From: a bacterium
Lineage (GTDB): Bacteria; Patescibacteriota; Minisyncoccia; UBA6257; Colwellbacteraceae
Assembly: GCA_021787205.1 (NCBI GenBank)
Contig: JAJYME010000002.1
Span: forward strand, 1 to 52,694
Direction of reading: 5' to 3'
Length of the DNA stretch: 52,694 bases
Under the pieces are notes generated by a model. The model made no database searches. It was not told the origin of the DNA and was given only the letters and a program-made list of their open reading frames with translations. Shown here in pieces: positions 3,637 through 51,192 of the stretch (position 1 is the first letter of the stretch; every line of letters begins with the position of its first letter). A program made the translations under genes and the position numbers.

Positions 3637-4503
3637 TTAGAGCGGTTTGGGGGTAAATCCATAAAGGTCGGCGTAGGTTGCCCAAATGCCGGGACAGACG
3701 GAGAAATAGCGGCATTCTTGACATTTCTCCGGTTTTGTTTTGCTAAAAGTCTCTGATTCGTCCCCGGTATGCTCGATAGCGTATTGGCGGTTAGCCTCGT
3801 CCAAAAGGCAGAAAGGATAAGCGATGGAACGAAAGGATCGCCAACCTTCCTTGCCGGTCTGGGAAGACCCCAAGTCGTTTTTAGCCAAAACGGCGTTAAG
3901 GAAGGGGGCGGTTTCCTCGATCGAGGGAATCATCTCCGCCAGGTGGTTCATCGCCTCGCCGGCGGGGTGGACAAAGCAGAATTGGACATCAGTGACGCCG
4001 AGATCAAGCAAAAAATCCGCTAATTCCGGCAAATAACCATAGTTTGGGCGGCAAACGACGACATTAACCTTGGCAGGAATGCCGAGCGCTCTTACATTCT
4101 TGATTCCCTGGACCGTCTCCTCAAAGCTGCCCTTAACTCCGGTTATAGCCTCGTGGATCATAGCCGTGTGCCCATTCAGGGAAAAAATGATTTCAAAGTT
4201 CTTGATTTTGGAGAGGGCTTCGGCAAAACCTTTGTCGGCTAGGCGACGGCCATTGGTCTTGAGGGTGATCTTCTCAAAGCCCAAGCTTTCGGCGAAGCGG
4301 ATAATATCCAAAATATCGGGGCGGATGCTTGCCTCTCCCCCGCTTAGGGAAAGGTTAGCATAACCTTGATCCTTCACTTCTTTGATTTTCGCTTTGATAT
4401 CAGCCAAGGAGCGGGCGGCCAAAGACTTGATATCCTCGCGCATGCAGATCAGGCAACGGTTATTGCAGCCGGTATTCACCAGGATAAGCGCCGTATTGTT
4501 CAT
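3637..4503 (-). CDS. Radical SAM protein with a C-terminal Cys-rich (SPASM/twitch-like) segment
   Basis: N-terminal CNNRCLIC (CxxxCxxC) 4Fe-4S/SAM motif, a GGE motif (SLSGGEASI), and C-terminal CQECRYFSVCPGIW. ATG at 4501-4503. Confidence 0.8.
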   Translation of the reverse strand: MNNTALILVNTGCNNRCLICMREDIKSLAARSLADIKAKIKEVKDQGYANLSLSGGEASIRPDILDIIRFAESLGFEKITLKTNGRRLADKGFAEALSKIKNFEIIFSLNGHTAMIHEAITGVKGSFEETVQGIKNVRALGIPAKVNVVVCRPNYGYLPELADFLLDLGVTDVQFCFVHPAGEAMNHLAEMIPSIEETAPFLNAVLAKNDLGSSQTGKEGWRSFRSIAYPFCLLDEANRQYAIEHTGDESETFSKTKPEKCQECRYFSVCPGIWATYADLYGFTPKPL

Positions 4504-4528
4504 AAATTAATTTTATATCAAGGAAATA

Positions 4529-4557
4529 AAAAACACATCCCTGAAGGATGTGTTTTT
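4529..4557 (-). terminator. Bidirectional hairpin terminator between the HTH protein gene and the radical SAM gene
   Basis: AAAAACACATCC-CTGAA-GGATGTGTTTTT. Confidence 0.75.
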
Positions 4558-4561
4558 TCCG

Positions 4562-5380
4562 TTATTCCCCGGGAAGGGAATAATTATTGGTAGAAATCCG
4601 TTTGAAAGTCCCGACTGTTTCCATTTTCTTAGGCGGGACGGGCTCGAAGATACTCGAAGCGATCGGCGCAGCGACTGGCGCGGCTGAGGGATTGCCCAGA
4701 AGAAGGAAATAAAAACGGTTCTGACCCTGCCTGATGACATCAACCCGACCTTCCCGGACGAGGATATCCAAGGCGCGGCGAACAGTGCGGGAGCTGACAT
4801 CAGGGAAAGCCGTTTCCAATTCCCTGAAATTGACTTTGTTGCCCGAACTCAAGAAATCAACGATTCTCTCCGGGTCAAAGACCGGACGGCGGCCGGAAGG
4901 AACGGTCGGTTCGCCATCATTCCTTACGTAATCGCCATAATTGCCAAAGGACTCGTTATCGATCTCATATCGGCCGGCATCATCAGAGAAAGAGACAGGA
5001 GACGGAATTCCCGCCGCCGGATCGGCGCTTTGCGGCGCATCCGGAACAGCGGGAGACAAGTCCGAAACGACATCAGAAAAAGAGAACATCGGCGAGATAT
5101 CAAGAGAAACGGCCTTCTCCGCTTCTTTAGAGACTAACCTCTGGAGATTATCCAGCTCTCTTATCAAGACTTCAATATTGACTGGCTTAACCACTCGCAA
5201 GGAACCGCAGAAAAGGACGATATTCTTGATGTGATCAATCTTCGGGCCGACATTTTCTTCAGAAACAAGCAAAATGGCCGCATTCTCAAATGCATCCCTG
5301 ATTTTTTGGTTTTTAATTATTTCCGCTACCCGGAACATCGCCCCAGCGATTTCCCGGGAAAGAACCAGTATGCCCGACAT
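4562..5380 (-). CDS. Hypothetical protein with a C-terminal winged-helix DNA-binding-like segment
   Basis: 272-aa ORF with ATG start. The C-terminal SRTVRRALDILVREGRVDVIRQGQNRFYFLL resembles a wHTH recognition helix plus wing. The central region is Pro/Asp-rich and low-complexity. Confidence 0.45.
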   Translation of the reverse strand: MSGILVLSREIAGAMFRVAEIIKNQKIRDAFENAAILLVSEENVGPKIDHIKNIVLFCGSLRVVKPVNIEVLIRELDNLQRLVSKEAEKAVSLDISPMFSFSDVVSDLSPAVPDAPQSADPAAGIPSPVSFSDDAGRYEIDNESFGNYGDYVRNDGEPTVPSGRRPVFDPERIVDFLSSGNKVNFRELETAFPDVSSRTVRRALDILVREGRVDVIRQGQNRFYFLLLGNPSAAPVAAPIASSIFEPVPPKKMETVGTFKRISTNNYSLPGE

Positions 5381-5425
5381 CGTCTTATATATAAATCAAA
5401 GTCAGGGTTTTTTCAATGGTGACGG

Positions 5426-5947
5426 CTATAGCCTGACGCCTAAAAGATAAGGCAAGAGAAGGGCGATGGCGGCGGCGTAGACAGCGTCAAACCAAAAGAA
5501 GCGGAGATAATTGGCAAGCTTGAAAATCAAAGCAAAAAGATAAGCAAAGGGTATGAGGAGACCCAAGAAGCGGGCGTGCTTCACGTAGTCGACAAAGTTG
5601 TCCATATCCTCATTGCTCGGAAAGGCGTGCATGCCGATAGAGATCGAGACCCACATCAGAAGCCAGAAGGGCCAAGTCCGAGCGGGAAAAAAATAAAAGG
5701 CGGAAACGGAGGAAAGAAAACAGAACAAGGTGTTAAGGATGAACGGGCCGACGGAAATCAAGAAGGAACTCTTGAGACTGTCTGGCGCGCCATGGACGAC
5801 ATAGCCGGCAGGATTGCCGAAGCGGAAATAGCGAACCTTATAAACCGGCACGCCCAACTCATCGGCAAAAAACTTATGCCCCATCTCGTGGACGATGACG
5901 CCGGGAAAAGTAAGAAAGGAAATGACAGAACCGGGAATCAAAAACAT
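5426..5947 (-). CDS. Integral-membrane putative zinc metallopeptidase (DUF3267-like)
   Basis: HEMGH (HExxH) motif near the N-terminus, followed by several hydrophobic helices. 173 aa. Confidence 0.6.
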   Translation of the reverse strand: MFLIPGSVISFLTFPGVIVHEMGHKFFADELGVPVYKVRYFRFGNPAGYVVHGAPDSLKSSFLISVGPFILNTLFCFLSSVSAFYFFPARTWPFWLLMWVSISIGMHAFPSNEDMDNFVDYVKHARFLGLLIPFAYLFALIFKLANYLRFFWFDAVYAAAIALLLPYLLGVRL

Positions 5948-5969
5948 AAGATCATTTTATCACAGAAAA

Positions 5970-5995
5970 CAAAAAACTCCCTTTCGGGAGTCTTT
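5970..5995 (-). terminator. Intrinsic terminator
   Basis: ACTCCC-TTTC-GGGAGT hairpin. The minus-strand reading is followed by TTTTTT. Confidence 0.75.
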
Positions 5996-6711
5996 TAATA
6001 AAAAAGAATAATGACGGAAACGATAAGGGCGATGATCGGCATAGAGATTACGGCAAACAAGCGATTCTTCTCAAACAACTCCCCTTTGTGATGGGCGATG
6101 ATCGCAAGGACAATGGGGACGACAAACAGGAGGGAAAGAATCGTCTTTGCGACAACCTGGGCAATATCGGAGACAACCATTCCAGAGAACAGGATGGAGA
6201 CGCTCCAGACGATTTCAAAGGTTGAGAGGACGACAAACGAAGAAGAAATCAAAGCCTTGTCCTTCACCTGGAACATGGAGAATAAATCATAAGCGCAAGC
6301 GAAAACCATCAAAAGAAGCAGATAGATCGGCACCTCGCCGGCGAAAAAGCCGCCAAAACAGACGGTGACGACAAAGAAAGACAGGACGCTCAAGGCGAAC
6401 TCCCGATTAGCAACGGCGTAATCCTTGATCAAAAACAGAAGCAGAAGGGTATCGAAGCCATAAGCAAAGCCCCAGTAGCCGCCAAAGGTATTCTGGACGA
6501 CAAAGATGGAATAAATCGAAGCGATGCCCGTAAGCAAGAAGCCGGAGACGGAAGAAAACAGGAAAAGGGAGGCGACGATGAATCCCAAGATGCTGACCCA
6601 GAAGGAGACCAGGGAGAACAACAAGGCCAAAAAGAAGGCCTTGGTCCCGGATCGGACCTTCTGGGTCTCAATCCAAACACTAATTAGTTTTTTGATTTTG
6701 CCTGATTGCAC
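5995..6711 (-). CDS. Polytopic membrane protein, function unknown
   Basis: 238-aa ORF, almost entirely hydrophobic helices. The start at 6709-6711 is GTG and overlaps the clpB stop by 28 nt, so the start is uncertain. Confidence 0.5.
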   Translation of the reverse strand: MQSGKIKKLISVWIETQKVRSGTKAFFLALLFSLVSFWVSILGFIVASLFLFSSVSGFLLTGIASIYSIFVVQNTFGGYWGFAYGFDTLLLLFLIKDYAVANREFALSVLSFFVVTVCFGGFFAGEVPIYLLLLMVFACAYDLFSMFQVKDKALISSSFVVLSTFEIVWSVSILFSGMVVSDIAQVVAKTILSLLFVVPIVLAIIAHHKGELFEKNRLFAVISMPIIALIVSVIILFY

Positions 6712-15611: not shown

Positions 15612-15678
15612 AAGTATTATTTTATCAGAAAAGAAGCAATGATAAAACCTTCCCTGTGGATAAGAGGCATATATTAAA

Positions 15679-18706: not shown

Positions 18707-18739
18707 AAACAATTTTTTATATTTTGCGACAGATACCGC

Positions 18740-18768
18740 TTGATTTTTTCAAAAAAAAATGATACTAT
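18740..18768 (+). promoter_or_regulatory. rpsO promoter
   Basis: TTGATT, 17 nt, TGATACTAT (extended -10). The -10 ends 8 nt before the rpsO ATG. Confidence 0.6.
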
Positions 18769-18776
18769 GGGCGTAA

Positions 18777-19010
18777 ATGTTAACTTCTAAGTCAAAAGCG
18801 AAAATCATCAAGGAGAACCAAATCAACGAGAAGGACACCGGCTCCGCCAACGTCCAGATCGGAATCCTTACCAAGAGAATTGATGATCTCGCCGGTCATT
18901 TGAAAAAGAATCCTAAAGATGCCCATTCTCGCCGCGGACTTTTGAAAATGGTTTCCAAGCGCAGAAAATTGGAAAAGTATATCGATTCTTCTTCCAAAAA
19001 AACCAAATAA
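18777..19010 (+). CDS. rpsO: 30S ribosomal protein S15
   Basis: 77 aa. [49 protein letters not shown] is a typical S15 sequence. Confidence 0.93.
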
Positions 19011-19017
19011 CAAAAAT

Positions 19018-19048
19018 AAGACAGCCCGAAAAGGCTGTCTTATTTTTT
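19018..19048 (+). terminator. Bidirectional terminator (rpsO / recombinase)
   Basis: AAGACAGCC-CGAAAA-GGCTGTCTT followed by ATTTTTT. Confidence 0.8.
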
Positions 19049-19981
19049 CTCTTCCTCATCGTCGCGACGGGCGGCGTGGAATTGTTTATGGATGTCCCGA
19101 AGCTCAGTGTTCGTCAGATGGGTGTAAATCTGGGTGGTCTGGATATTCGAATGACCGAGCATTTCTTGGACGGAGCGGATATCGGCGCCATTTACCAGAA
19201 GGTCGGTGGCGAACAAATGTCTTAGGGTGTGAGGATGGACCCCTTTCGGAATGCCGGCGGCTTTGGCATAGCGTTCAATCATTCGCTGGACAGCCCGAGG
19301 GATGATCCTGCCAATCGCCTTTGGTTCGGCGGACTTGTCGTAGCTTACAAACATTGCCTCATCGGCATCGTTTCTTTTGTCCAAATATTCCCTGATCGCC
19401 TTTTTGGCGTCACCGGAGAGAAAGACGACCCGGGTGTGTCCGCCCTTACCGGTAATACTTAACTCACCACGATCAAGGTTGGTATAGCGATCCAAGGCGC
19501 AGAGTTCCGAAACACGAAGTCCGGTTGAAAAAAGCACTTCCAGAATGGCCTTGTCCCTCAGGGCCTTCAGATCAGTTCCTTTAGGCGCCTCAAGCAAACG
19601 CTCAAGATCTTCGTATTCGATAACATCAATCTGTCTATCGGGCATGACCGGCAAATCGATCTTTTCCGGAGACAAGACCGGCAAGTCCTGCTTGATGAGG
19701 AATCTCAGGAAGTTCCTGATGGCGATGATATAATACGCCTGGGTATTCTTCTTGAGGTCGGTCTTTTCCGCCAAATAAATCCTGAAAGCCCTGATCCTAG
19801 CATTCGTGATATCCTCGACGGATTTGATTTCCTGGTTCTCAATGAATTTAAGAAGGGCTCTCTCGTAGACTTTCTTAGTCCTGGGCGAACGGTTCTTCTC
19901 GATTTGCAAATAGTCAAAATAATCCTTGAGATGGGATCTTATATCTTTTTTCTCCACCAGATAATTATAACACTGTCGCAA
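19040..19981 (-). CDS. Tyrosine site-specific recombinase, XerC/XerD-like
   Basis: N-terminal SAM-like core-binding domain. Catalytic residues in GLRVSEL, HTLRHLFATDL, LGHSNIQTTQIYTHL. The ORF-track start is TTG at 19981. A GTG at 19955-19957, 6 nt after a TGTTATAAT box, is an alternative start. Confidence 0.85.
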   Translation of the reverse strand: MRQCYNYLVEKKDIRSHLKDYFDYLQIEKNRSPRTKKVYERALLKFIENQEIKSVEDITNARIRAFRIYLAEKTDLKKNTQAYYIIAIRNFLRFLIKQDLPVLSPEKIDLPVMPDRQIDVIEYEDLERLLEAPKGTDLKALRDKAILEVLFSTGLRVSELCALDRYTNLDRGELSITGKGGHTRVVFLSGDAKKAIREYLDKRNDADEAMFVSYDKSAEPKAIGRIIPRAVQRMIERYAKAAGIPKGVHPHTLRHLFATDLLVNGADIRSVQEMLGHSNIQTTQIYTHLTNTELRDIHKQFHAARRDDEEEKK

Positions 19982-19985
19982 AATA

Positions 19986-40212: not shown

Positions 40213-40235
40213 ACCGCCCAGGGGGGCGGTTTTTA
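40211..40235 (+). terminator. Bidirectional terminator (rlmH / RNHCP gene)
   Basis: AAACCGCCC-AGGG-GGGCGGTTT followed by TT. Confidence 0.8.
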
Positions 40236-40700
40236 GTTCTTTATAAAATTGCCAAATAGCTGGCGATAGACCTCATCCTTATCTTTTTCCTCAAGGATCT
40301 CGATCTTTTCCTCCTTCAATGATTCTTTCTCCGCCTCCGATAAAGACAGAGTCTTAGAAAACAGTTTCAAGATCTCGGCCTCATCATCGTCGCCAGCCAA
40401 ACGGTTTATCGATATTTTGCGACACTTGTCACATAGATGGACGATCATCAACTCCCCCTGTTTTTTTCTCCCATACTTATCGACGCCCTCCTGTTTAAAG
40501 GTCAGGGCAACCGGCACCATGATTCCCAAGCAATCAGAGGCGCGGTCTCCGGAGACATCCCGATCGAGGTGTCTCGAGCTCAAACACTTGCGACAATGAT
40601 TCCTATTCTTTGTGCCGATAAGATTGCTAATCTCGTTTCTTTCACCGCAAACCGAACAGATGAATGGACCAAAAGTATCTTCGCTATTTCTAGTAAGCAT
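40233..40700 (-). CDS. RNHCP-domain zinc-ribbon protein
   Basis: FICSVCGERNE...NRNHCRKCLSSRHLD...VHLCDKCRKISINR (Cys pairs plus an RNHC motif). ATG at 40698-40700 lies 7 nt after TGATAGTAT. Confidence 0.7.
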   Translation of the reverse strand: MLTRNSEDTFGPFICSVCGERNEISNLIGTKNRNHCRKCLSSRHLDRDVSGDRASDCLGIMVPVALTFKQEGVDKYGRKKQGELMIVHLCDKCRKISINRLAGDDDEAEILKLFSKTLSLSEAEKESLKEEKIEILEEKDKDEVYRQLFGNFIKN

Positions 40701-40743
40701 TGTCAAAATACTATCAGAGATTTCAGCAAAACTCAAAAATCCA

Positions 40744-40770
40744 CAAGTTATCCACATTGTGGATAACTTG
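40744..40770. promoter_or_regulatory. 27-bp perfect palindrome containing two convergent perfect DnaA boxes
   Basis: CAAGTTATCCACA-T-TGTGGATAACTTG (TTATCCACA at 40748-40756, TGTGGATAA at 40758-40766). An extra ATCCACA lies at 40737-40743. Confidence 0.75.
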
Positions 40771-40870
40771 TGTCATTCTGTCGCAAAATATACCGTCACT
40801 CAATTCTCAACCTTCCCCTGATCGGCAAGCCAGGATAGGTCGTTTCCAACAAACAAGCTAGGAGAACCGG

Positions 40871-40957
40871 TGACAGCGCCTGGCGATGACAAACCACAAT
40901 GACTGACAAGCTTGTGACAAGGCGGTGACAAGATGGTGACAATGGAGTCTTGTCACA
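40871..40957. repeat. Cluster of (G)TGACA(A) boxes, three of them phased at exactly 11 bp
   Basis: TGACA at 40871, 40887, 40904, 40915, 40926 and 40937, and inverted (TGTCA) at 40951. A second cluster lies at about 41296-41425. Confidence 0.8.
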
Positions 40958-41109
40958 AACTTGTGGCCAATTCCTTTGACATTAGGAGTGAAGGATAAGA
41001 CAAATGACAAAAAAGACGAGTTCTTTTTGAACTCTGTTTACACATTTTGTTTTCACATGTCGCAAAATAATGTGTAAACAAAATGTGTAAACAGCAATAG
41101 TAAAAGTAA

Positions 41110-41133
41110 AAAATGTTTGCCGGCAAACATTTT
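41110..41133. repeat. 24-bp perfect palindrome AAAATGTTTGCC|GGCAAACATTTT
   Basis: Read directly from the sequence. Outer arms TGTTT...AAACA match the architecture of the parS consensus TGTTTCACGTGAAACA. Confidence 0.9.
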
Positions 41134-41224
41134 GAAACAAAAAACAGGCAAAGCGTGTGTAAACGGCAAACATCATCCCCTGTTTTTGTGTAAACAGCAA
41201 ACACTTTGTCCAAAAATACGCTAA

Positions 41225-41824
41225 AAGTGTTTGACGTTTACACACCTGCCGTTGTTTTTGTGGAAACAGTGTGTAGACGGCAAACACTGATCCCCCTCGT
41301 TGACAGTGACAAAGCCGTTGACAAGAGAGCTGACAATACCAGTGTCAAAGCAAAAAGACAAGACAAAGACCAAGCTCCGGACAGTGAAAAGGAAAAAGAG
41401 ACGTGTAAAAAGAGGGGGTGACAAAAAACAAGAAGTGTTTGACGTTTACACACCTGCCGTTTTTTTGTGGAAACAATGTGTAGACGGCAAACATTTTGTG
41501 CAGAAAAAAGATATAAGTGTTTGACGTTTACACACCTACCTTTGTTTTTGTGGAAACAGTGTGTAGACGGCAAACAAAAAGATCAAGAACAAACAAGGAG
41601 TGTGTAGACGGCAAACATTTTGTGCAGAAAAAAGATATAAGTGTTTGACGTTTACACACCTGCCTTTGTTTTTGTGGAAACAGTGTGTAGACGGCAAACA
41701 AAAAGATCAAGAACAAACAAGGAGTGTGTAGACGGCAAACATTTTGTGCAGAAAAAAGATATAAGTGTTTGACGTTTACACACCTGCCTTTGTTTTTGTG
41801 GAAACAGTGTGTAGACGGCAAACA
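41225..41824 (+). repeat. Array of iteron-like units. One 62-bp unit, one 82-bp unit, two full 124-bp tandem units and one truncated unit.
   Basis: Units start at 41225, 41433, 41515, 41639 and 41763 (AAGTGTTTGACGTTTACACACCTGCC...). Seven perfect TGTGTAGACGGCAAACA boxes, plus two variants upstream (41156, 41187) and five inverted partners TGTTTGACGTTTACACA. Confidence 0.92.
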
Positions 41825-41830
41825 CCAGTC

Positions 41831-41864
41831 AGCAGAAAATGTTTGCCGACAAACATTTTCTGCT
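41831..41864. repeat. 34-nt palindrome/hairpin AGCAGAAAATGTTTG-CCGA-CAAACATTTTCTGCT
   Basis: 15-bp perfect arms. Shares the core AAAATGTTTGCCG.CAAACATTTT with the palindrome at 41110. Confidence 0.9.
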
Positions 41865-41904
41865 CTTCCGTGATATACTAGAGAGAGACATCCATTAATG
41901 ATAA

Positions 41905-41914
41905 GGGGGGGGGG
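41905..41914. repeat. G10 homopolymer tract
   Basis: ATAAGGGGGGGGGGACAC, 55 nt upstream of the yraN start. Confidence 0.9.
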
Positions 41915-41969
41915 ACACTAATTATTTTGCGACAGTATTAACGGATGCTAACGAAATAAAAAATAACAA

Positions 41970-42350
41970 ATGTCAAGCAAAGACGTGGGTGATTTGGGCG
42001 AGAGCTTAGCCGTCGATTATCTGCAAAAGAAGGGTTGCAAAATCATTGCAAGAAACTGGCGTTGCAGATTCGCCGAGCTGGATATCATAGCCACAGATCC
42101 CGACAATACCCTCTTGATCGTGGAGGTTAAAAGCTCAAAAACGATAATTGACAAAAGTGCCGATTTCTTTCCTGAAATTCACTTTAACGCAACCAAAAGA
42201 AATCGGGTAAGGGCGGCGGGGCTTTACTACGCGAACGCCCAAAAAGATCCGACTAACAAGGATGGGGGTTTCAGGGTCGACCTGATATGCGTCGACATCG
42301 ATCAGGATAAAAAAGGATTCCGGATAAGGCATTATAAAAACGTCACCTAA
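41970..42350 (+). CDS. yraN: YraN-family (UPF0102) putative endonuclease
   Basis: GESLAVDYLQKKGCKIIARNWRCRFAELDIIA...LLIVEVKS matches the YraN/PD-(D/E)xK pattern. Confidence 0.85.
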   Translation: MSSKDVGDLGESLAVDYLQKKGCKIIARNWRCRFAELDIIATDPDNTLLIVEVKSSKTIIDKSADFFPEIHFNATKRNRVRAAGLYYANAQKDPTNKDGGFRVDLICVDIDQDKKGFRIRHYKNVT

Positions 42351-50886: not shown

Positions 50887-51192
50887 ATGGCAGTAAAAGA
50901 TTTTAACTTAGAAGACGATCAAGACGAGAAAGACATTTTGGATGACATGGAAGAAATGGACGAATTGGAAGAGGAGGATGACCTGGACGACATTGACAGC
51001 ATTCACATAACATCTGAAGACGACCTCGAAGAAGAAGAAGAAGAGGAGGAGGAGTTTGAAGATGAAGAGGAAGAGTTTGAAGATGAAGATTTCAAAGCCG
51101 CAGCGGCCGATGAGGAAGAAGAGGAAGAGGAGGAAGAAAAGAAAAAGGAAGAAGAGGAAGAGGAATACGACGAAGAAGGCATTTTCTTTTAA
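50887..51192 (+). CDS. Small hyper-acidic Asp/Glu-rich protein, function unknown
   Basis: 101-aa ORF that is predominantly D/E (runs such as EEEEEEEEFEDEEEEFEDED). Has its own terminator at 51196-51231. Confidence 0.5.
   Translation: MAVKDFNLEDDQDEKDILDDMEEMDELEEEDDLDDIDSIHITSEDDLEEEEEEEEEFEDEEEEFEDEDFKAAAADEEEEEEEEEKKKEEEEEEYDEEGIFF

Follow-up and report, generated by a model that had tools for sequence, protein, structure and literature searches.

A candidate origin-proximal parS-type array upstream of yraN in a patescibacterial chromosome fragment

The gap between RNHCP and yraN

The DNA analyzed here (the window: positions 1 to 52,694 of contig JAJYME010000002.1, assembly GCA_021787205.1) comes from an uncultivated bacterium of the patescibacterial family Colwellbacteraceae. 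It is a chromosomal fragment and encodes gyrA, nusA, pnp, clpB, clpP, ftsH, RNase J, RNase Y, ruvABC, and pilus genes. The best protein matches and the gene order of the window both point to metagenome-assembled genomes (MAGs) labeled Wolfebacteria, Colwellbacteria, or Paceibacterota. This report concerns the repeat-rich gap between the RNHCP-domain gene and yraN (40701–41969). With 1269 bp, it is the largest gap in the window, followed by gaps of 492, 479, and 411 bp. A preliminary description had singled out this 1.27-kb spacer as lacking a credible open reading frame (ORF), and had suggested an origin, a centromere, or another protein-loading locus. Indeed, the ORFs within the gap encode at most 111 residues, start mainly with TTG or GTG, and span the repeats. 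Rfam scans of the gap, run at gathering thresholds and at an E-value of 1, returned no family over threshold and only sub-threshold hairpin noise.

The gene on the left flank (40233–40700, minus strand) belongs to Pfam family PF12647. An alternative ATG at 40757 would place the palindrome with consensus DnaA boxes (see below) within this ORF; alignments to homologues begin at residue 13 of the 155-aa form. On the right, yraN (41970–42350, plus strand) is assigned to UPF0102 by Pfam and NCBIfam. From there rightward, the window continues with rpsT, holA, fpg, HK, exo, tsaE, ruvB, T2SSE, yebC, ruvC, an additional gene (x), and a PBP gene, inside which the window ends.

The gap contains 14 copies of a 17-bp box, TGTGTAGACGGCAAACA, in agreement with the earlier count. 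At ≤3 mismatches all copies lie within 41156–41824, compared to 0.08 expected by chance. Each box is an asymmetric hybrid (BA) of two half-sites, TGTGTAGAC and GGCAAACA (TGTGTARAC followed by G/A-N-CAAACA). We refer to GGCAAACA as A (reverse complement TGTTTGCC) and to TGTGTARAC as B (reverse complement GTYTACACA). Boxes 1–4 start at 41156 (+), 41187 (+), 41228 (−), and 41270 (+) and span 41156–41286. Boxes 5–14 (41436–41824) follow a repeating (+,−,+) pattern that includes a 124-bp tandem repeat. The tandem units, previously given as 62, 82, and 124 bp, measure 124 bp (41477–41824, 2.8 copies, 99% identical) and 83 bp. The spacing between boxes is 41–42 bp, which is one-third of 124 bp and about four helical turns, and would therefore expose all boxes on one face of the DNA. 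Every plus-strand box that comes after a minus-strand box is preceded by TTTTTGTGGAAACAG, and the 9-mer variant TGTGGAAAC is found 2 bp 5' of five plus-strand boxes.

Two palindromes complete this set of sites. The first is the 24-bp palindrome AAAATGTTTGCCGGCAAACATTTT at 41110–41133, which had been described correctly. The second, GCAGAAAATGTTTGCCGACAAACATTTTCTGC at 41832–41863, was reported as 34 nt long; it does exist, with a length of 32 nt and one central mismatch. Both join two A half-sites head to head (A'A, TGTTTGCC followed by GGCAAACA), at 41114 perfectly and at 41840 with one mismatch. Their 16-bp cores, TGTTTGCCGGCAAACA (41114–41129) and TGTTTGCCGACAAACA (41840–41855), are variant parS sites that match parS at 12 and 11 of 16 positions, respectively; the outer TGTTT and central CG are unchanged and the symmetry is preserved. 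Canonical parS, TGTTNCACGTGAAACA, finds no match in the gap at ≤3 mismatches. The element is thus a variant and not a canonical parS member.

Conservation of the array and orthologous parS sites upstream of yraN

As the preliminary description had proposed, we compared the RNHCP–yraN spacer with that of related genomes, whose loci and contigs are designated by L-numbers. The near-identical strain L021 (GCA_027424005.1; 99.4–99.8% identity) contains the same gap with two fewer 124-bp units. The short-read contigs L022 and L023 end inside the array, and the left third of the gap lacks a counterpart in this comparison because the contigs of the relatives end before reaching it. In L023, YraN is 66% identical and the downstream synteny is the same. 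The inter-box DNA of L023 has accumulated substitutions and indels and the G10 tract near yraN is absent. The 17-bp boxes are retained, and so are TTTTTGTGKAAACAG in front of them, AAAATGTTTGCCGACAAACATTTT as the equivalent of the palindrome at 41832–41863, and TTATTTTGCGACAGT. L023 also contains a palindrome built from two B half-sites (BB', TGTGTAGAcaTCTACACA). At the level of sequence comparison, this conservation of boxes and palindromes amid diverged DNA is a phylogenetic footprint of a function exerted by the DNA itself. The exact 17-mer is also found 5' of yraN in the distant MAGs L001, L034, L095/L011/L164, and L104/L059, in which YraN is only 32–38% identical. In scans of genome and metagenome collections with the 17-mer, most of the single matches were attributable to chance; L001, L011/L095/L164, L034, L038, and L059/L104 are the real ones. 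L042, with two box-like 17-mer matches, was left outside this sorting.

The notion that the array is a junk expansion without function, an assembly artifact, or a long noncoding RNA could draw on the 99% identity of the 124-bp units, on their different number in two near-identical assemblies, and on the short-read contigs that break in the array, but is barely tenable given that the boxes persist at the same locus in distant MAGs and in L023 (66% identity), that both orientations are represented, which suits DNA sites and not an RNA, and that no Rfam family reaches threshold.

Since yraN anchors the element across Patescibacteria, we used a YraN-alignment search to collect further loci. This search provided 79 new yraN loci, and L001 again; 46 are from the candidate phyla radiation (CPR) and 33 are not. 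Within 1 kb 5' of yraN, 21 of the 46 CPR loci contain a total of 49 16-mers of the type TGTTNNNCGNNNAACA, a density of 1.12/kb as compared to 0.025/kb elsewhere. None of the 33 non-CPR loci has such a 16-mer at this position. Many of the sites 5' of yraN are perfect copies of the universal parS (TGTTTCACGTGAAACA): eight copies in the 936-bp gap of L286, four and a near-perfect fifth in L136, three each in L294 and L198, and two each in L127, L129, L133, and L137.

The window and these parS-bearing loci share a common gene order, gyrA-lactamaseB-S1-ftsH ... gap-yraN-(rpsT-holA-fpg-HK-exo-tsaE-ruvB-T2SSE)-yebC-ruvC-x-PBP. The gap in the window therefore occupies the same yraN-upstream position, within common flanking synteny, as the bona fide parS sites of relatives. 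Intermediate sequences are found at this position as well. L128, L147, and L152 contain hybrid sites, TGTTTCACGACAAACA; L132, L143, L148, L138, and L180 contain variants such as TGTTTGTCGGCAAACA, TGTTTACCGGTAAACA, and TGTTTATCGATAAACA; and in L132 variants of the form TGTTTGYCGGCAAACA stand beside canonical parS. The exact 24-bp palindrome of the window recurs 5' of yraN in L134, a Wolfebacteria MAG with 30% GC. Judged from site sequence and synteny, the yraN-upstream gap of Patescibacteria is a parS array that is distinct from but close to oriC. Orthology to perfect-parS arrays supports the reading of the gap as a centromere, one of the options raised in the preliminary description, and so does the footprint in L023.

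If so, an array upstream of yraN would flag the origin region in fragmented CPR bins and would explain why assemblies break there. Our literature search returned no report of parS in Patescibacteria, no link between yraN and parS, no drift of central parS positions between lineages, no clades of ParB with Ser-201, and no phased array of asymmetric composite boxes. Origin-proximal parS clusters as such are already well known. The suggestion that the architecture may be undescribed thus needs qualification: as a diverged form of a parS array it is not wholly so.

The yraN-upstream gaps of relatives contain additional elements. The motif GCATAAAACCTAC is conserved among them, but the window's gap lacks it. 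The same is true for the motif GGTAAGCGCATAAAACCTAC(A/G)YTTT, which occurs in L134 (~4745–4770 and 4815–4845), L160, L131, L164, L136, and L128, often after GTGAAACA..ATGTTTAACA; it begins with the same 8 nt as the DnaA box of Thermotoga maritima, AAACCTACCACC. Inverted and direct CGGCAA repeats (AATTCGGCAA...TTGCCGAATT, six copies of ATCGGCAA, four copies of GTCCGGCAA) mark the distal edge of yraN-upstream clusters in L001 (~935–1010), L034 (~6335–6375), L038, L147, L152, L131, L104 (8830–8925), and L137 (4500–4560). Furthermore, a gene for a single-motif LAGLIDADG_1 protein of ~150–170 residues lies antisense to yraN inside the site cluster of at least six CPR lineages: L034 (6606–7070), L104 (9105–9572, the same as L059), L126 (4451–4960), L131 (1380–1820), L293 (9367–9876), and, as a partial gene, L038, on the minus strand where a strand is given. 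The encoded proteins can be aligned with one another. Either the gene is for a homing endonuclease that is long resident or has been domesticated, or a conserved site has been the target of homing more than once. L001 has an IS200-like Y1 transposase at this position, and the window has neither gene.

ParB specificity and the candidate binding proteins

On balance, we favor the interpretation that the gap is an origin-proximal, ParB-loading array of the parS type, orthologous to the parS sites of relatives, which was recoded and amplified in this lineage. That ParB is the binder is inferred. According to this model, ParB is encoded outside of the contig; its dimers would nucleate at both symmetric variants of parS (TGTTTGCCGGCAAACA), and would probably also engage the 14 hybrid boxes through their GGCAAACA halves, which the 41–42-bp spacing would align on one face of the DNA. 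The resulting dense partition complex would mark the origin region for segregation and SMC loading. The TGTGTARAC half resembles a DnaA box and is also found alone; a further factor may bind it, or ParB itself may do so with relaxed specificity.

This model can be compared to well-characterized systems. Similar to chromosomal ParABS parS clusters bound by ParB/Spo0J, the sites in the window occupy an orthologous gap and are restricted to a single locus close to where the origin is predicted, and the variant palindrome keeps 12 of 16 positions and the dyad. Unlike in these clusters, half-site positions 5 and 6 of the core TGTTTGCCGGCAAACA are altered, asymmetric 17-mers make up most of the sites, the 16 sites follow each other at 41–42-bp intervals within 0.75 kb, and two related genomes encode Ser at the otherwise invariant Gly-201 of ParB (residue numbers follow the Caulobacter protein). 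In terms of layout, the array is reminiscent of sopC from the F plasmid, which consists of twelve 43-bp repeats; SopB binds the 16-bp inverted repeat that each of them contains (PMC3177203). Both are compact loci in which more than 10 sites of the ParB type recur regularly at about four helical turns, and in which the number of units varies. In contrast to sopC, where symmetric sites recur in direct repeats, the array in the window is chromosomal, has unrelated sequences and asymmetric, alternating boxes, and lacks adjacent sopAB-like genes.

The nature of the ParB protein is the next question. As the preliminary description had noted, neither dnaA nor parAB is present in the window, and a tblastn search of the whole window with Spo0J and Soj gave no match. 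In the Wolfebacteria-type loci L208 and L210, clpB lies within ~2–2.5 kb of parB. The ORFs that come after clpB in the window (3637–6711, minus strand; 238, 173, and 272 aa) could be assigned to no Pfam family with confidence, and the 272-aa protein shows weak, sub-threshold winged-helix matches (DsrD, GntR, ArsR).

More can be learned from H41-bin263 (L011/L164), a genome with 17-bp boxes in which a distance of 6.5 kb separates parA-parB from the box cluster; the gene order is parAB-relA-topA-dprA-x-tRNA-boxes-yraN. The sequence of its ParB reads GKSR...NT.LRLLD...NESQAR, so that residue 201 is Ser and residue 202 is Gln. The Wolfebacteria genome Zod_Metabat.1002 likewise combines a Ser-201 ParB (NESQAR, L209) with two copies of TGTTTGCCGGCAAACA upstream of yraN (L134). 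In a survey of 81 ParB loci, the S201/Q202 combination occurs in a Wolfebacteria-type clade (L206–L210, L239, L011). The remaining ParB proteins of this survey, including those of other CPR, have G201, and two Noc proteins show the expected Q/K/R. Further CPR ParBs with ESHAR or ESHGR (S201/H202) exist. The ParBs of L235, L259, L267, and L277, which are labeled Saccharibacteria, contain GKAT, GKAA, or GKAN in place of GKSR and hence have no Arg-173, a residue reported to be invariant and to read parS position 1. No parS-like palindromes were found within 10 kb of these Saccharibacteria-labeled loci.

Previous work has reported that G201 is invariant in ParB orthologues and that residue 201 sets the base read at half-site position 6, where Arg in Noc reads C; proteins that bind sites with C at this position also accept Ser or Thr as residue 201 (Jalal et al. 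2020, PMC7383237). The variant sites described here have C at half-site position 6 (A to C), and position 5 is changed too. The direction of the change fits, and we infer that ParB with Ser-201 goes with half-sites of the GGCAAACA type, as suggested by the only two genomes from which both protein and site can be read. The relation between Noc and its binding site (NBS; PMC7383237) is similar in that the site departs symmetrically from parS, including A to C at position 6, and the protein differs at residue 201. It is dissimilar in that position 1 stays G and position 5 changes as well in our sites, which are clustered rather than dispersed; furthermore, the residue is Ser instead of Arg, R173 is retained, and there is no sign of a second paralogue.

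Several observations argue against ParB loading at this array. All but two of the 16 sites are asymmetric 17-mers, not the kind of site that a symmetric ParB dimer is expected to prefer. Among the 23 matches to the relaxed DnaA box in the gap (TTWTNCACA at ≤1 mismatch), 18 are GTTTNCACA 9-mers, which keeps DnaA as a candidate binder. parA and parB are absent from the 52.7-kb contig. The link between residue 201 and the site comes from two genomes, and the other Ser-201 ParB loci have no sites within 10 kb: parS-like 16-mers were found within this distance of parB neither at the Ser-201 loci L206–L210, L239, and L290–L292 nor at the Gly-201 CPR loci L211–L215. Finally, the GGCAAACA half may descend from the separate CGGCAA class of repeats, which co-occurs with canonical parS in L137, L104, and L164.

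An alternative is a sequence-specific binder other than ParB. Such a protein could be a Noc-like paralogue, a nucleoid-organizing or regulatory factor, or a monomer that reads the whole 17-mer with two modules and would occupy the one-half palindromes as a dimer, as in the logic of iterons and operators. Canonical parS would then have been lost or displaced from this position. It would suit the asymmetry of the boxes and the coexistence of three site types: A'A (TGTTTGCC followed by GGCAAACA), BA (the 17-mer), and BB' (TGTGTAGAcaTCTACACA in L023). In addition, the box center GTAAACGGCAA of L164 builds direct repeats of its own and a 23-bp palindrome, CGGCAA-type repeats stand beside canonical parS in L137, and no ParB was found for this genome. 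We nevertheless consider this explanation unlikely. No candidate gene adjoins the gap (the neighbors are RNHCP, yraN, rpsT, and holA) and no Rep gene is present; the palindromes keep 12 of 16 parS positions, with outer TGTTT and central CG intact; and graded hybrids at the same locus lead to canonical parS.

A more ambitious version of the ParB model is that Patescibacteria contain a third natural specificity class of ParB/Noc proteins, in which a G201S ParB (with H202Q in the two site-bearing genomes) co-evolved with TGTTTGCCGGCAAACA. Fusion of the half-site to the DnaA-box-like TGTGTARAC as a second, conserved 9-bp module and amplification into 14 phased composites could let the partition protein meet another factor, perhaps DnaA, on one face of the DNA, and could thereby couple segregation to the control of initiation. 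We regard this scenario as distinctly unlikely.

ParB–parS recognition is treated as nearly universal; here, the central parS bases drift lineage by lineage. The conserved position upstream of yraN together with the Ser-201 ParBs would provide a natural series for studying the co-evolution of a centromere and its binder in reduced genomes.

Another reading assigns the gap to DnaA. A cluster of DnaA boxes outside of oriC, as in datA or in Bacillus subtilis, could titrate or regulate DnaA, or control the flanking genes. Two perfect boxes (TTATCCACA) and 21 one-mismatch versions of TTWTNCACA amount to 18/kb in the gap versus 1.7/kb outside, an 11-fold enrichment. Pairs of the form TGTGGAAAC-ag-TGTGTAGAC are 2 bp apart and have an 11-bp period, similar to the arrays of low-affinity DnaA sites in E. 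coli oriC. The predicted distance of ~15 kb from oriC (see below) would also be compatible with this role. On the other hand, 18 of the 21 one-mismatch matches have the same G at position 1 (GTTTNCACA), which points to a distinct motif: the B-type 9-mers match TTWTNCACA at eight of nine positions, nearly always with this G. The origins of relatives use canonical or near-canonical DnaA boxes, the orthologous gaps carry parS and not DnaA boxes, and the palindrome of perfect boxes is likewise scored as a terminator-like hairpin. Taken together, a regulatory DnaA cluster is quite improbable.

An iteron origin of the Rep type was also considered and rejected. The 264-aa protein encoded nearby is HolA (TIGR01128, 83 bits), and no Rep family matched any of the neighboring ORFs scanned (RNHCP, yraN, rpsT, holA). 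The likeness to iterons and operators of Rep-type plasmid origins lies in the many asymmetric 17-bp units combined with palindromes made from one half; the window differs by its chromosomal setting, the alternating boxes, and the absence of a nearby Rep gene. The iterons of F RepE may contain TGTGACAA, a point that does not enter this comparison.

Predicted position of the replication origin and other features of the gap

The preliminary description had listed a replication origin among the possible functions and had proposed skew analysis as a check. GC skew, plain as well as at third codon positions, is dominated by a coding-strand effect (a = −0.18) and contains no replichore signal. As a replichore measure we used AT skew at third codon positions on the plus strand (AT3) instead. 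Regardless of gene strand, A exceeds T in 29 of 30 genes to the left and in 11 of 11 genes to the right of the gap. A model with a constant term (+0.23) leaves a residual sum of squares (RSS) of 1078, and a model with a switch at the gap leaves an RSS of 1855. The 806-kb contig L286 served as a control: AT3 is positive from yebC through dnaA and negative from the dnaA|rpmH junction on (rpmH −0.25, rnpA −0.17, yidC −0.16, jag −0.44, pilin −0.16). Just left of the yraN gap of L286, AT3 is near zero, with no reversal and no switch. In L294, intended as a second positive control, AT3 was too weak and noisy to read. Hence, strand asymmetry does not switch at the gap, and the proposal of an origin at this site is contradicted.

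Synteny suggests another location. The order of L286 is yraN-yebC-ruvC-x-PBP-dnaN-dnaA|rpmH-rnpA-yidC-jag, and the space between its dnaA and dnaN contains an unwinding module of DnaA-trios and DnaA boxes (TAGTAGttTTAGTAGggcgTGTGGACAAtgTGCATAAC), ~5–6 kb from the parS gap. The 244-kb contig L294 has the same gene order and a similar module. In L137, TAGTAGTAG...TGTGGATAA lies between dnaA and dnaN, ~4.6 kb from the parS-bearing yraN gap. The DnaA boxes in these origins are canonical or nearly so (TGTGGATAA in L137, TGTGGACAA and TGTGCATAA in L286, TGTTGATAA in L294). From yraN onward, the gene order of the window is that of Colwellbacteria L293, and PBP is followed by dnaN-dnaA in L286, L294, and L137. 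From this synteny and the strand asymmetry, oriC is predicted to lie 3–6 kb past the right end of the window, ~14–16 kb from the gap, which agrees with replication forks running leftward through the whole window.

Could the gap still be an oriC that has been separated from dnaA? This would be in line with a long gene-free gap between divergent genes, a stretch of 30% GC at 41000–41150, perfect DnaA boxes, many 9-mers resembling DnaA boxes, a TAG/TAA run, and reports that CPR origins carry small repeat arrays (PMC7111523, PMC4736985). Origins with basal unwinding by DnaA boxes and DnaA-trios (PMC8287927, PMC6669920) share with the gap the tandem DnaA-box-like 9-mers, the AT-rich stretch, and the TAG/TAA run, but differ in box/trio polarity and by the absence of an asymmetry switch in the window, and the corresponding module of relatives sits between dnaA and dnaN.

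The polarity deserves closer attention. In E. coli R1 and the DNA unwinding element, 5'-TAG trios lie 5' of boxes that read TGTGGATAA. The dnaA-dnaN spacers of relatives follow the same order, with 5'-TAG trios, a GC spacer, and then TGTGGATAA. In the window, the trio-like run TAG TAA AAG TAA AAA (41098–41112, plus strand) is located 3' of a pair of TGTG-type TGTGTAAAC boxes, and thus has the wrong polarity. A DnaA-trio unwinding module in the gap was excluded on this basis, considering both strands and the palindrome of perfect boxes. Given also that the sign of AT3 is constant over all 52.7 kb, that its flip in L286 occurs at dnaA|rpmH, away from the yraN gap, and that synteny places dnaN-dnaA after PBP at the right end of the window, an oriC in the gap is highly improbable. 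The distribution of gene strands, recognized before as lacking the divergence typical of origins, concurs: the minus strand encodes 30 of the 41 genes, and does so on both sides of the gap. The present analysis thus removes a false origin call.

The other repeats named in the preliminary description were likewise confirmed, and each of its repeat classes exceeds chance expectation by far. Consensus DnaA boxes TTATCCACA at 40748–40756 (plus) and 40758–40766 (minus) form a perfect palindrome at 40742–40772, which is 31 bp long (15+1+15) and not 27 bp as stated before. Minus-strand scoring also picks out this palindrome as a terminator-like hairpin with a T-run behind it. Two more perfect boxes occur outside of the gap (207–215 and 15655–15663), raising the total in the window to four; ~0.4 are expected by hand arithmetic.

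The phased GTGACAA boxes are present as well. Cluster A (40871–40956) contains seven copies of (G)TGACAA, the last of which is inverted; GTGACAA at 40914, 40925, and 40936 (plus) and at 40950 (minus) follows the reported period of 11 bp. Cluster B (41301–41336, plus strand) has a 12-bp period, with TGACAG at 41301 and TGACAA at 41307, 41319, and 41331. A further TGACAA is isolated at 41419.

The most AT-rich stretch of the gap, the segment 41000–41150 already mentioned, was correctly noted along with its boxes and the TAG/TAA run. It encloses an inverted repeat with 25-nt arms (41034–41094), in which four lone B-type 9-mers (GTTTACACA, and GTTTTCACA / TGTGTAAAC twice) surround a copy of a conserved 12-mer (41058–41069). 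The 9-mer TGTGKAAAC occurs 15 times in the window, each time in the gap (0.46 expected by chance). The G10 tract, which is missing from L023 (see above), is found at 41905–41914 on the plus strand as described and is probably incidental.

The conserved 12-mer, TGTCGCAAAATA / TATTTTGCGACA, has six exact copies in the window (18720–18731, 19974–19985, 40413–40424, 40779–40790, 41058–41069, and 41923–41934) versus ~0.006 expected by hand arithmetic. Three are in the gap and three elsewhere, so that the motif is not specific to the gap; it is conserved upstream of yraN in L023. The copies are oriented toward RNHCP, yraN, and a xerC-like gene. One of them, as the 12/13-mer TATTTTGCGACA(G) at 40779–40790 on the minus strand, points at RNHCP. 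Another, extended to the 13-mer TATTTTGCGACAG (41923–41935, plus strand), points at yraN 35 nt 5' of its ATG and is the one kept in L023. The element is probably a promoter or operator of this lineage and not a part of the array. The xerC-like gene (19040–19981, minus strand) encodes a tyrosine recombinase of the XerC/D type, and its listed TTG start lies within one 12-mer copy. The long gaps around this gene (411, 479, and 400 bp) hold a tRNA and two copies of the 12-mer.

Two observations concern neighboring genes. GAA/GAG-rich tandem repeats with periods of 9, 15, 18, and 21 occur at 50940–51178, at or just 5' of the start of the PBP gene, and probably encode an acidic low-complexity stretch. 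In the relative L290, whose ParB has Ser-201, the parAB-relA-topA-dprA block is succeeded by an RNHCP gene (18751–19140) in the place that boxes and yraN occupy in H41-bin263; RNHCP may therefore be a recurrent neighbor of the box-cluster/yraN region.

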